Source: a virus
Taxonomy: Duplodnaviria; Heunggongvirae; Uroviricota; Caudoviricetes
IMG/VR virus record: IMGVR_UViG_2703718817_000011
Reading direction: 5' to 3' (one strand)
DNA length: 15,650 nucleotides
A program made the position numbers and the translations under genes. Below, piece by piece: positions 6,209-14,340 of this stretch; within the stretch, counting starts at the first letter, position 1, and every line of letters starts with the position of its first letter. The notes beneath the pieces are model-generated. The model worked only from the letters and a program-made list of their open reading frames with translations. It was not told the DNA's origin and did no database searches.

Positions 6209-6237
6209 AAAACACTAAAGGGGCTTTTAAGCCCCTT
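6204..6237 (-). terminator. Intrinsic terminator-like hairpin after the capsid gene (minus strand)
   Basis: AAGGGGC / GCCCCTT stem at 6218-6237 followed on the minus strand by a U-rich run (UAGUGUUUUAUG). Confidence 0.4.
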
Positions 6238-6247
6238 CTGTATGCTG

Positions 6248-7405
6248 TTAATCGTCGTCCTGTGGCAGTTCCAGAATCTTGATCGCGTTCGAATCCACCA
6301 CGCCACCGCCTAAATATTTCTGCGTGAAAATTTTGATGAAGCCCGGCTCTGTGAGGTTGTCCGGTCTGGTGCGAACACCTGTTTCGTGATCAACAATGTA
6401 GTAACCGCGTTTGAAGTCACCCAGGGCAATAACGTTATCAGGCATAAACTCCAGATATTCGACCGGAAGGCCCAGCAACGTATCAGGATCACCCGCCTGT
6501 AAACGGTCGCGCCAGATGTAATCACCGTTCGCGTTCTTCACCTTCTGAAGTTTTGCCGCCGTCGTGGAGTTAACCACCCAGACCGCGTTTTTGCGGTATT
6601 TTTTACGTAATGCAAATTTCAGGTCGATCAACGGGTCCGCAGATGTCCACGCCAGAGATTCGGAAGGTTTAATTACCTGCAACGTACCAAAATCACGCTC
6701 TTTGTCGTTCTTCTCTGCACGGGGTACGGATAAAAAACCTTTTGCTTTTTTGTCACCGTCGCCCACAACCAGATCGCTTTCTTCGGTTTCCGTGAAGGTG
6801 TCGCCAATCTCACCCGTCAGCCATGAAAGGATGTCCACATCGGAAAAATCCACGATTTCCTGTGTGGTGCGCGGGTACGCATAGACCGGATACAGCTTAA
6901 TGCTCACCTCGTTAATCTGCGGGGTGCTGGTCTGTTCGCGTGTCTTACCCTCTTCACCGTGGTTAACGGTCGCACCGCCAGCGGAAACAAGCTGCTTAAA
7001 CTCGTTGCTGCTGATTTTCTTCACGGTACAGATGCGGCGCATGGTGGACTCATCCGCCAGCATTCGCATGATTTCGGTGTTCAGCTCGGGGATAACGGTA
7101 TAACCACCATCAGCGGGAACGCCTGTACTTAATGCGCGGGTTTCACCCGTCAGAATGTAGTTTCGTAGTTCTGCGGGGTCAGTGGTCTGACTGCTTTTAC
7201 CTGGCTTGCTGCGCTCTTCGTCTGCAATGGCTTCAAGGCGGGAAATGTCTTTATCGAGGGATTCAGCTTTAGCGCGTAATTCGTCAAATTTTGCGCCCTC
7301 AGCATCGTTAAGACTGCGGTTTTCTTTTTCCGCGTTCTCCAGCATGTCACGCATCTGATTTTTAATGGCGGTTTTCTGCTGGCGTAATTCGATTATTCTC
7401 TGCAT
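6248..7405 (-). CDS. Major capsid protein (HK97 fold) with N-terminal coiled-coil delta/scaffold domain
   Basis: ATG at 7405 (the track ORF extends to a TTG at 7450); N-terminal coiled coil about 70 aa long followed by a capsid-family body (GGYTVIPELNTEI...). Confidence 0.88.
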   Translation of the reverse strand: MQRIIELRQQKTAIKNQMRDMLENAEKENRSLNDAEGAKFDELRAKAESLDKDISRLEAIADEERSKPGKSSQTTDPAELRNYILTGETRALSTGVPADGGYTVIPELNTEIMRMLADESTMRRICTVKKISSNEFKQLVSAGGATVNHGEEGKTREQTSTPQINEVSIKLYPVYAYPRTTQEIVDFSDVDILSWLTGEIGDTFTETEESDLVVGDGDKKAKGFLSVPRAEKNDKERDFGTLQVIKPSESLAWTSADPLIDLKFALRKKYRKNAVWVVNSTTAAKLQKVKNANGDYIWRDRLQAGDPDTLLGLPVEYLEFMPDNVIALGDFKRGYYIVDHETGVRTRPDNLTEPGFIKIFTQKYLGGGVVDSNAIKILELPQDDD

Positions 7406-7443
7406 AAAAAAAAGTCCTGGGGTTAAGTAAGGAACTCCAGGAC
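7406..7443 (-). promoter_or_regulatory. Leader hairpin plus U8 tract abutting the capsid start codon (attenuator or SD-sequestering structure)
   Basis: Minus strand reads GUCCUGGAG-loop-CCCCAGGAC then UUUUUUUU then AUG; the only SD-like AGGA lies inside the 3' arm of the stem. Confidence 0.45.
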
Positions 7444-7620
7444 GCGGCAAACACTCAACCGTTTTTCATAAGGAAATCAGCAATCGCACCGATCGTTTTC
7501 CCGCCTGGTAATGAATATTGGCGGGCACATTAACAGGCGGGAAAGTGGCCCCAGCGTCCTGGCACCACGGGCGAGAATAATCATGATTCAGTTCGGGTAA
7601 AATATGCCGATCCGCTCAGT

Positions 7621-7650
7621 GAACAACGTGGAACAACCACGAACAAATAA
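7621..7650 (-). repeat. Three helically phased TTGTTC repeats upstream of the packaging operon
   Basis: Plus strand gaacaacgtg gaacaaccac gaacaaataa; minus strand reads TTGTTC at a 10-bp period; related to the repeats at 251-270 and 14341-14390. Confidence 0.5.
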
Positions 7651-7653
7651 TTT

Positions 7654-7686
7654 ACAAAAAATAACAAAAAGCCGGATTGCTCCGGC
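7654..7686 (-). terminator. Intrinsic terminator after the perC-like gene
   Basis: GCCGGA-ttgc-TCCGGC stem at 7671-7686 followed on the minus strand by UUUUUGUUAUUUUUUG. Confidence 0.55.
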
Positions 7687-7692
7687 TGTTGA

Positions 7693-11757: not shown

Positions 11758-12307
11758 GGCGCACCTCCTGACGAATACGGGCGGCAAATACAGCAACACA
11801 ACCGGACGGGCAACGGTTACGCGCTTCGCGTTCCGTCCAGGCGGTTACGTGGATGATTTGATGGTCTGACGCGCCAAAGGCAATAAAGCGCCAGATAAAG
11901 GCTGTTTGAGAATGTACGAGGGCAGGGGTAGTAGCCATGTTGGCAGCCTCCTCAGTGTGGTTAAGATAACCGCCACGCAAAAGGCTAATTTCGCTGGTGG
12001 CGGACTGTACAGGGTTAGCCTTACCGGACACTGAAGAAACCGGCGCGGATTGCTCCGCCCCCGTACAGCCCACCATTGATAAGGTGTGACTATGCGGCAC
12101 AAAAAAACACGCGGGACGCGTGCTGTGCGCTTCAGTTGTTTTCAGGAGGCTAATCCCGACACCCGTTTTATGAGGTGCGCGGGAATCATAGCTATTTTCG
12201 ACACTGGCGATCAACTGGTTTTTTTCTCCGATATTCAGGGCCAGAAAACGCCACACAAAGGCAGTTTGTGTGTGTACAAGGTGTGGTATATGATTTACAG
12301 CAACCAT
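11750..12307 (-). CDS. Icd-like (P4 host cell division inhibitor-like) protein with tandem duplicated domain and internal start
   Basis: ATG 12307 with an AGGAG SD; two copies of an LVH(T/S)QTAF(V/I)WRF segment; second in-frame ATG at 11938 has its own GAGGAGG SD; Icd-like call from recollection of P4-like island proteins. Confidence 0.5.
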   Translation of the reverse strand: MVAVNHIPHLVHTQTAFVWRFLALNIGEKNQLIASVENSYDSRAPHKTGVGISLLKTTEAHSTRPACFFVPHSHTLSMVGCTGAEQSAPVSSVSGKANPVQSATSEISLLRGGYLNHTEEAANMATTPALVHSQTAFIWRFIAFGASDHQIIHVTAWTEREARNRCPSGCVAVFAARIRQEVRHD

Positions 12308-14058: not shown

Positions 14059-14219
14059 TATTGCCCCCTTTCGTTTCTTAAAGAGTTATTTCGTGTTCTA
14101 TTGCGTTGGGATGTGTCTGATTGTGTCAGGATGATTCAGAGTTGGCAAATGTTGGTGTCGCATGGTTTACAGAAAGAGGAATAATCAGGATAAAATCATT
14201 TAAATTCATGTTAATACAA

Positions 14220-14249
14220 AGGCATAAAATCTTGTTTTATGCCTTTTTT
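14220..14249 (+). terminator. Strong stem-loop plus T-tract in the int-alpA intergenic region
   Basis: 10-bp stem AGGCATAAAA / TTTTATGCCT, 5-nt loop, then TTTTT; could act bidirectionally to end int transcription. Confidence 0.45.
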
Positions 14250-14340
14250 CGCACACTTTAACGCGTAATTCACTAATGTATAAAAAACCAGCTGAGCATT
14301 AAAAATCAGCAACTTACAAATCTGTATTCTTTTTGGCCTC

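Follow-up and report, generated by a model that had tools for sequence, protein, structure and literature searches.

We analysed a stretch of 15,650 nucleotides (nt), called the window below, that corresponds to the IMG/VR virus record IMGVR_UViG_2703718817_000011 (Caudoviricetes) and that we assign, from its sequence, to the phage-inducible chromosomal islands of the capsid-forming kind (cf-PICIs), as an element of the EcCIEDL933 type on the minus strand. Within ~15 kb it combines an integrase gene, alpA and replication genes with capsid and packaging genes of its own. The gene order is int, alpA (PF05930), a C4/isrK RNA module, an icd-like gene, rgdR/DUF4222, a RepA helicase gene, ssb and a perC-family gene, after which comes the packaging operon: capsid, protease, portal, connectors, HNH, TerS and TerL. 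The capsid gene of the O157:H7 EDL933 copy is 98.7% identical to the window’s, and a 501-nt query around the hairpin that is our main subject is 100% identical to E. coli O43 RM10042, in which the element sits in tqsA; the same leader-region query has matches in 440 of 5,426 complete E. coli genomes. The cf-PICI family has been described (10.1101/2022.09.08.507074). Our search of the cf-PICI literature returned nothing on promoters, terminators, transcripts or the switching-on of the packaging operon, and it is on the 264 nt between the end of perC (7693) and the capsid AUG, in which there is no conserved open reading frame (ORF), that this work concentrates.

Read on the minus strand, positions 7443-7403 are GUCCUGGAGUUCCUUACUUAACCCCAGGAC-UUUUUUUU-AUG, or, divided into parts, GUCCUGG-A-GUU-CCUUACUU-AAC-C-CCAGGAC-UUUUUUUU-AUG. 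RNAfold predicts a stem of 7 base pairs (bp), GUCCUGG/CCAGGAC, five of them G-C, then an A.C mismatch, three more pairs and an 8-nt loop, with an energy of -12.7 kcal/mol for the 30-nt hairpin; all statements about structure in this work are thermodynamic predictions of this kind. The value is comparable to those of the element’s other terminator-like hairpins, namely the ones that follow perC and the capsid gene (Table 1) and the isrK terminator (-9.8 kcal/mol). The original prediction, made from the sequence alone, had described a GC-rich stem at this place, followed by eight U and directly by the capsid AUG, with the sole Shine-Dalgarno (SD)-like motif inside the 3' arm; both its coordinates and its description are correct, AGGA (7418-7415) being the only SD-like motif within 30 nt. 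The start codon itself is supported by PGAP, which places the capsid start at the same codon in the near-identical region of a closely related genome, and by an alignment of relatives in which the capsid N-terminus is conserved from M1.

As a sequence signal, then, a stable stem with an adjoining U-tract of ~7-8 nt has the look of an ordinary intrinsic terminator. Such a combination is uncommon in the window: there are 34 runs of at least six T on its two strands, and just four of them, that of the capsid hairpin included, directly follow a single hairpin of -12 kcal/mol or lower. Since no T-run follows the hairpin on the plus strand, it could terminate capsid-sense RNA only; and since U8 and AUG leave no room for a promoter between them, all capsid-sense transcripts must traverse both hairpin and U8. 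A simple terminator scan did not pick up this hairpin, because its rules exclude internal mismatches and loops of more than 8 nt. For the SD of the window the predicted probability of being unpaired is below 1e-4, and opening the ribosome-binding window (-18 to +13) would cost ~13.6 kcal/mol.

The lineage to which the window belongs was represented by the window and 46 related loci (numbered with an L below), 45 of which have capsids at least 97% identical, the remaining one (L073) having a capsid 69% identical. All 47 keep the hairpin followed by seven or eight U (U7 in 34 and U8 in 12 of the 46 related loci). In four loci CCCC is changed to CUUC, by which one G-C pair becomes G.U and the A.C mismatch is repaired (-14.6 kcal/mol); three 3'-arm variants, each found in a single locus, retain a stable stem (AAUCCC, with a G.U pair, -11.0; CUGC, -13.2; a bulged form, -8.7 kcal/mol), and marked weakening was seen in just one locus (G>U, -6.1 kcal/mol). 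The most divergent member is instructive: in L073 the 12-nt loop is unrelated and the inner stem is new (GUCCUGGUG/CAUCAGGAC; -14.0 kcal/mol), and still a 9-bp stem and U8 stand directly before the AUG. These patterns, of which L073 offers the best evidence, suggest that hairpin and U-tract have been selected as a unit. The related loci are mostly from Enterobacteriaceae and are phylogenetically clustered, and those from IMG/VR carry no taxonomy here; a scan of genome contigs with the capsid alignment gave five loci, its peptide patterns being too specific, and the diversity considered here comes from the IMG/VR scans.

Further upstream, a sigma70-like late promoter (-35 at 7601-7596, -10 at 7579-7574) would place the start of transcription near 7568, at the foot of the first leader hairpin, H1. 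Our set of 88 leaders, taken from E. coli genomes and IMG/VR, contains 42 distinct leaders and 29 distinct promoter variants; the leaders were anchored by a search pattern, TAxxxT 5 nt before H1, which demanded neither a -35 nor any spacer, yet the promoter is in the same register throughout, with exactly 16 nt between -35 and -10. The equivalent type B promoter in L004, TTTACA-16-TATGTT, was detected by a generic promoter scan. An alternative promoter slightly upstream, TTGTTC-16-TATTTT with its -10 at 7605-7600, was rejected: it fits the window’s lineage only, whereas the downstream frame fits 88 of 88 leaders. Upstream of the -35 lies an array of TTGTTC repeats (10 matches with at most two mismatches in the window, against 2.0 expected) that is conserved in type A and type B leaders, and the terminator-like hairpin that ends perC is predicted to insulate the leader from transcription arriving from upstream.

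The leader that this promoter would produce is highly structured. Its 205-nt sequence folds better than shuffled versions of itself (z = -4.0; none of 200 shuffles was as good), and the ~160 nt counted from the putative start are predicted to form H1, two further hairpins (H2 and H3) and finally the terminal hairpin described above. For H1, 99.4% of alignment cells are paired, compared to 28-58% in slid controls, and four pairs have changed on both sides; its G.U pairs fit RNA and not DNA, and RNAalifold predicts it independently. Rfam 15 contains no covariance model that matches within 7396-7620, even at E ≤ 10 (a 321-nt search). The leader thereby appears to be an uncatalogued, covarying and previously undescribed structured RNA of this satellite family.

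The leader extends well beyond the window’s own lineage, and its last helix changes as it does so. Some 40 leaders of type B and some 75 of a type C-like kind, from elements whose capsids are 63-75% identical to the window’s, share promoter, H1 and H2 with the window; their last hairpin is GGUUUC(A/C)CGU...ACG(G/A)GAAACC, the 3' arm of which holds the SD (GGA/GAG at -12 to -10). The 5' arm of the window’s hairpin is homologous to that of types B and C, and its CGUC is invariant in all sequences. For each of seven lineages the folding models leave the SD unpaired with a probability of at most 0.002 and put the cost of opening it at 3.8-10.2 kcal/mol; the three representatives of the window’s lineage are among the costliest (SD, 6.9-10.2 kcal/mol; ribosome-binding window, 13-14 kcal/mol). 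Comparison of the lineages thus presents SD sequestration as the conserved theme and the U-tract, with the terminator that it would complete, as an addition of the window’s lineage.

A second pairing, which competes with the terminal hairpin, emerged from the same alignments. The H1 apex, CCAGGACGC (7562-7554), and the 5' arm with its extension, GCGUCCUGG (7445-7437), are exactly complementary, and in 7 of 7 lineages this apex is the best upstream partner of that arm (-15.5 to -23.2 kcal/mol, versus -7 to -14 kcal/mol elsewhere); shuffled H1 sequences pair as well with the 5' arm in at most 1% of trials. Five core pairs of this long-range helix are 100% paired in the alignment, and one pair occurs in three states, C-G, U-A and G-C, each of which matches a change in H1’s own stem. 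Across ~70 further loci the state of H1 (UGAG/GGAG) and that of the arm (CACGUC/CCCGUC) are perfectly associated. An inverted-repeat DNA operator could give the same pattern; the G.U pairs in H1 argue for RNA.

In its layout the leader resembles the 1-2-3-4 topology of the trp, pyrBI and his attenuators: H1 would be helix 1:2, the long-range helix 2:3 and the terminal hairpin 3:4, so that the 3:4 terminator helix and 2:3 are mutually exclusive, region 2 is normally held in 1:2, and the three-way complementarity covaries. Unlike those attenuators, this leader has no leader peptide, and a stretch of ~110 nt that includes two hairpins separates its regions 2 and 3. The helix that would sequester the terminator’s 5' arm is thus present, and a sensing event was not found; the leader-peptide version of attenuation was rejected. 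A short ORF, of 10 codons in types B and C and of 35 in the window’s lineage, does read into H1, but its ATG overlaps the -10, upstream of the putative transcription start, has no SD and is not conserved, being GTG in L073 and absent in L075, L080 and L087. In L073 the 2:3 helix belongs to the predicted minimum-energy fold. In the window the 2:3 state is predicted to lie ~10 kcal/mol above the default fold, so the default would be OFF and a trigger would be needed.

We hypothesize that the hairpin is a dual gate: it would attenuate late-promoter transcripts by intrinsic termination and would also sequester the capsid SD, and it would be opened when the H1 apex pairs with the 5' arm. We hold this reading as a whole to be evenly balanced, and its parts differ: we judge it quite likely that SD sequestration limits capsid translation, we regard measurable termination at the U-tract as probable, and we lean slightly against the 2:3 helix as the physiological means of release. 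The sequence of events would be as follows. RNA would start at the sigma70-like promoter, with the TTGTTC repeats upstream, and would present H1, H2, H3 and then the SD-holding hairpin, with both H1 and the terminal hairpin formed in the default fold. In the EcCIEDL933-type lineage the polymerase would meet the GC-rich hairpin and U7-8, and a fraction of transcripts would end at ~7406-7410; in those that read through, the SD would be locked in the stem and capsid translation would be low. For expression the leader would refold, such that CCAGGACGC pairs with GCGUCCUGG and the terminator/sequestor helix is dissolved. Candidate triggers are a protein or RNA from the element or its helper phage, processing of the 5' end, and folding kinetics. 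In designed mutants U8 would be replaced by UUCACAUU, or the H1 apex CCAGGACGC by CCUCCACGC, the latter of which would break 2:3 only.

The capsid gene is followed by a second hairpin of this kind, by virtue of which the genes downstream of it also depend on read-through. A GC-rich hairpin with a U-run stands just after the capsid stop codon in 10 of 11 representative loci, every E. coli lineage included (L004, L012, L055 and L072-L075 are among them; the exception is L007, from Symbiopectobacterium), and the sequences of these hairpins have diverged. Read-through at this point could be partial, which would set stoichiometry, or could be achieved by a modified polymerase.

The original prediction had also proposed that capsid translation, and possibly transcription of the whole packaging operon, is gated by the hairpin, which would imply attenuation or antitermination. 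The proposal of a gate survives insofar as capsid-sense RNA cannot avoid the hairpin and the SD is predicted to be buried, and it is restricted by the lack of a U-tract in most other lineages; that of attenuation or antitermination gains from the covarying antiterminator-type helix and from the second terminator-like hairpin, and loses from the fact that the window encodes no recognisable antiterminator. We consider attenuation plausible; antitermination control of the whole packaging operon would at most be an inference.

Several observations weigh against the dual gate. Sequestering the SD is an odd device for a protein that is needed in hundreds of copies. No U-run follows the last hairpin of types B and C, and since the U-tract is absent from most of the other cf-PICI lineages that share promoter and leader, termination is not the conserved core and is dispensable for the family. 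The 8-nt loop and the internal mismatch may leave the terminator just moderately efficient. In the window’s lineage refolding is predicted to cost ~10-12 kcal/mol in stability relative to the default and would need a helper factor. The covariation goes back to few independent evolutionary events and in essence to three sequence states. Finally, a literature search directed at the CP-933C small RNAs (sRNAs), the ECs158x locus tags and the PchE regulon found no transcript, transcription start or 3'-end data for the leader region.

There are other ways to account for these features, and they partly overlap. The dual-gate hypothesis can be pushed further, to the view that the cf-PICI capsid leader is a new class of cis-regulatory RNA switch of phage satellites, whose first and last hairpins compete for one strand and in which one refolding, on a trigger supplied or induced by the helper, licenses read-through and capsid translation together. 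Both levels would then be gated in the EcCIEDL933 lineage and translation alone in the others; we find this doubtful.

Processive antitermination by a protein, after the manner of lambda Q, phage 21 Q or P. aeruginosa AlpA, would make the hairpin a genuine tR'-like terminator: a factor from the element or the helper would load at the late promoter and carry the polymerase past both terminators. We rate this as unlikely. Several features of the window recall the PR'-6S leader-tR' arrangement of lambdoid phages with Q (and the PR'-tR' short transcript of Stx phages), in which an intrinsic terminator ~160-200 nt after the promoter is unavoidable for late transcripts. Here the terminator lies ~160 nt downstream of the promoter (7443-7406), a further one lies inside the operon (6238-6217), a repeat array marks the promoter, and a small regulatory gene (of the perC family, or phrog_1957 in relatives) sits immediately upstream in what may be called the Q position. 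In a Symbiopectobacterium relative, whose capsid is 66% identical and which is the only one in which such a gene was seen, a gene for a Q antiterminator (PF06530, E = 2e-36) even stands directly upstream of the leader; this leader is unrelated and has a 10-bp hairpin and T6 ~50 nt before the capsid AUG; with a Q gene and a leader terminator at the same position, this locus is, by analogy, a positional precedent for terminator-based control of this type of operon. Unlike the lambdoid arrangement, however, the window has no Q-family protein: Pfam and PHROGs searches of its proteins found no PF06530, Q, N or other antiterminator family. Its terminator adjoins the start codon and contains the SD, and its sister lineages, types B and C, have no leader terminator. 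Inspection by eye revealed no -10-like pause element in the initial transcribed region and no likeness of H1 to boxB; the TTGTTC array lies upstream of the -35. Nor is the gene in the Q position constant. The window has perC there, and O157:H7 has perC together with a gene for a 74-aa phrog_1957 protein; L004, L005 and L013 lack perC and carry an 82-aa homologue of the phrog_1957 protein, and L011 has both.

Were the leader to work like the put RNA of phage HK022, which antiterminates in cis and independently of protein, read-through would be explained with no need for an antiterminator gene. Two adjacent stem-loops upstream of terminators, here H1 and H2, are common to both; the two are likened by layout only, and the leader matches no Rfam family.

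Two proteins of the element were considered as candidate antitermination factors and rejected. The PICI AlpA cannot be taken for an antiterminator by homology, since it shares only its name with the P. aeruginosa protein, which is much larger and 21Q-like. The window’s 62-aa AlpA (PF05930) matches only one solved structure, 8c3t, an "AlpA family phage regulatory protein", and the structure of P. aeruginosa AlpA is not among its matches. In the papers on the latter, AlpA is described as 21Q-like, with eight numbered helices and residues to at least 142, and as acting, as our factor would, at an intrinsic terminator (tB) immediately upstream of the first gene of a lysis or phage-like operon; its binding element lies between -35 and -10, where we saw none (PMC7969949, PMC9371919). 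PerC was dismissed as a relative of a known factor, since a comparison of its sequence with those of the solved structures gave no significant match; in addition, several relatives that have the same promoter lack perC. The available parts of the main text and supplement of the paper on the regulon of O157 PchE, a perC homologue, mention no capsid or phage gene, which is weak evidence against antitermination.

Conceivably, too, the hairpin acts on translation alone, tuning the access of ribosomes, with the U-tract as an enhancer that binds ribosomal protein S1 or serves as a standby site, and with negligible termination. We think this improbable. A precedent is the 5' untranslated region (UTR) of E. 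coli rnd, in which a terminator-like hairpin and U8 are reportedly required for translation (Zhang and Deutscher, 1992, cited in PMC5934652 and PMC7769764). There, too, a terminator-looking GC hairpin and eight U’s lie in an mRNA leader just upstream of the start codon; the difference is that the U-tract of rnd is upstream of the SD and promotes translation, whereas here the SD is in the stem and the U-tract forms the spacer between SD and AUG. Conservation speaks for a translational role, in that SD sequestration, and not the U-tract, is common to all lineages, and U-rich tracts that adjoin a structured ribosome-binding site are known to serve as enhancers of translation or as standby sites (PMC5934652, PMC7769764). 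On the other hand, what signals intrinsic termination physically is a GC-based hairpin such as this one (-12.7 kcal/mol) with a perfect U7-8 directly after it, the leader is not translated, so that nothing would prevent the hairpin from forming, and a U-run of at least seven is maintained in 47 of 47 loci while other lineages manage with A/C-rich spacers.

A constitutive attenuator, an insulator or an sRNA end would dispense with a switch altogether: the hairpin would lower and buffer transcription of the late operon, block read-through from early genes, or end a stable ~160-nt RNA that might have its own function, as the PR'-tR' short transcripts of lambdoid phages do. This, too, has a low probability in our view. 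The perC terminator and the capsid hairpin could form a tandem barrier, the leader would end in a hairpin and U-tail typical of sRNAs bound by Hfq or ProQ, some type B relatives encode a ProQ/FinO protein just upstream, and the default fold is strongly favoured. Such a device would leave unexplained both the covarying complementarity of H1 apex and 5' arm and the burial of the SD in lineages that have no terminator, and our literature search found no sRNA reported for the locus. That the structure is a chance or neutral one with no function is highly improbable: the 66-nt local fold around the hairpin is unexceptional by itself (z = -1.35) and most related loci are near-identical, so that identity alone proves little, but natural variants keep the structure, the diverged L073 among them, and neither the constancy of U length nor the fold of the whole leader is expected of such a structure.

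Table 1. Features of the packaging operon, its leader and the sequences upstream (positions in the window unless a locus is named)
Feature	Position	Strand	Basis or remark
perC-family gene	7965-7693	minus	
Intrinsic-terminator-like hairpin (AGCCGGAGCAAUCCGGCU + U-run) ending the perC gene	7670..7687	minus	-12.0 kcal/mol
Conserved box TTTGTAAAT, ~90 nt upstream of H1	7650..7658	minus	In nearly all cf-PICI lineages examined
Three direct TTGTTC repeats, 10-bp phasing, upstream of -35	7621..7646	minus	Candidate activator-binding array
Predicted -35 (TTTACC) of late promoter	7596..7601	minus	TTTAC(A/C/T) or weaker variant in 29 distinct promoter variants
Predicted -10 (TATTCT), 5 nt before H1	7574..7579	minus	TAxxxT in 88 leaders
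H1 (GUGGUGCCAGGACGCUGGGGCCAC), 5' end of leader	7545..7568	minus	Regions 1 and 2 of the 1-2-3-4 layout
H2, long hairpin (UUUCCCGCCUG...CAGGCGGGAAA), directly adjoining H1	7497..7544	minus	Base conserved, apex varies between lineages
H3, small hairpin (GAUCGGUGCGAUUGCUGAUU)	7475..7494	minus	Only in the window’s lineage
Region 3 (GCGUCCUGG), 5' arm of terminal hairpin + 2 nt	7437..7445	minus	Can pair with H1 apex (9 bp) or 3' arm (7 bp)
Terminal hairpin (helix 3:4), terminator-like and SD-sequestering	7414..7443	minus	RNAfold, lineage conservation, accessibility
SD-like AGGA in 3' arm, 9 nt from AUG	7415..7418	minus	Positional homologue of GGA/GAG in other lineages
U8 tract adjoining capsid AUG	7406..7413	minus	Sequence; U7-8 in relatives
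Capsid AUG	7405-7403	minus	Directly after U8
HK97-family major capsid gene, first of packaging operon	6248..7405	minus	
Second terminator-like hairpin (GAAGGGGCUUAAAAGCCCCUUU + U-rich tail), between capsid and protease genes	6217..6238	minus	-13.8 kcal/mol
cf-PICI-like element with Phage_antitermQ gene and leader terminator	L007/L008 1853-2500		Symbiopectobacterium sp. RP, two copies

The region between perC and the leader has its own history. In O157:H7 (L002 1608-2000) the gene for the 74-aa phrog_1957 protein lies between perC and the leader and is flanked by two copies of the perC terminator; the window (7692-7660) has one copy of the terminator and no gene, as if recombination between the terminator repeats had removed or introduced the latter. 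In most other cf-PICI lineages, homologues of the phrog_1957 protein adjoin the late promoter on its upstream side. Some type B cf-PICIs (L004 3201-3731, L005 3178-3720) encode a protein with a ProQ/FinO domain two genes upstream of the capsid leader, and this protein is a possible partner of the leader RNA.

Repeats of the TTGTTC type with 10-bp phasing recur elsewhere in the window: at 275-250 (minus strand), at 14382-14341 (in reverse), at 12853-12838 and at 12984-12969. With the array at 7646-7621, the sites comprise the sequence upstream of the late promoter, the surroundings of the att-proximal right end and the interval between int and alpA. They may be the regulon of one DNA-binding protein, for which the Xis-like AlpA would be the obvious candidate. 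In a type C element the repeats at the late promoter differ (TTACCC-like), and by eye no matching motif was found in the att-proximal region or upstream of alpA.

Other parts of the element also contain RNA modules and repeats. At 11993-12178 (minus strand), C4 antisense RNA (RF01695, 75.4 bits) and isrK (RF01394, 61.6 bits), both above the Rfam gathering score, are arranged in tandem just upstream of the icd-like ORF, as a P1/P4-type RNA immunity module within a cf-PICI, and when the window is aligned to the RM10042 copy, which is otherwise 99.7% identical, ~300 nt of it (11922-12223) are left without a match. Pairing of C4 or isrK with the leader was considered and rejected, the duplex energies being no better than those of shuffled controls (70 of 300 and 139 of 300, respectively). 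Downstream of the last ORF, at 655-621 (minus strand), are four GTGAC repeats with exact 10-bp spacing, possibly iterons or a packaging or binding site; the closest genome differs at this place by an indel of ~143 nt with a flanking 40-nt repeat. In the int-alpA intergenic region, at 14204-14282 (minus strand), a weak, sub-threshold Rfam match to BSnc120 (E = 0.007) covers a hairpin (GGCAUAAAACAAGAUUUUAUGCC), which may be a bidirectional terminator or a structured leader of alpA.

In principle a dual gate is not surprising. The S10 (rpsJ) leader of E. coli is one in which ribosomal protein L4 controls both termination and translation initiation through a hairpin region beside the first start codon, and the capsid leader would likewise serve both levels with one hairpin region at that position; unlike this parallel in layout, sequence and structure show no similarity that we could find (there is no Rfam match). 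What is new is the setting and the combination, a last helix that sequesters the SD in all lineages and that in one of them is also a terminator adjoining the start codon, and it bears on the unanswered question of how cf-PICIs time their expression.

The cf-PICIs are recently recognised, widespread phage satellites that make their own capsids and take only tails from helper phages. The testable parts of their late control can now be named: a promoter with its repeat array, a covarying leader absent from Rfam, and a hairpin that combines terminator and SD. If the dual gate is real, a costly structural operon would be kept silent in the prophage state and released at two levels at once, and engineered PICI "drones" would gain a compact gate on both transcription and translation. 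If, in addition, the leader proves to be a switch of a new class, it would tie the production of satellite capsids to the late phase of the helper without the need for a Q-like protein.

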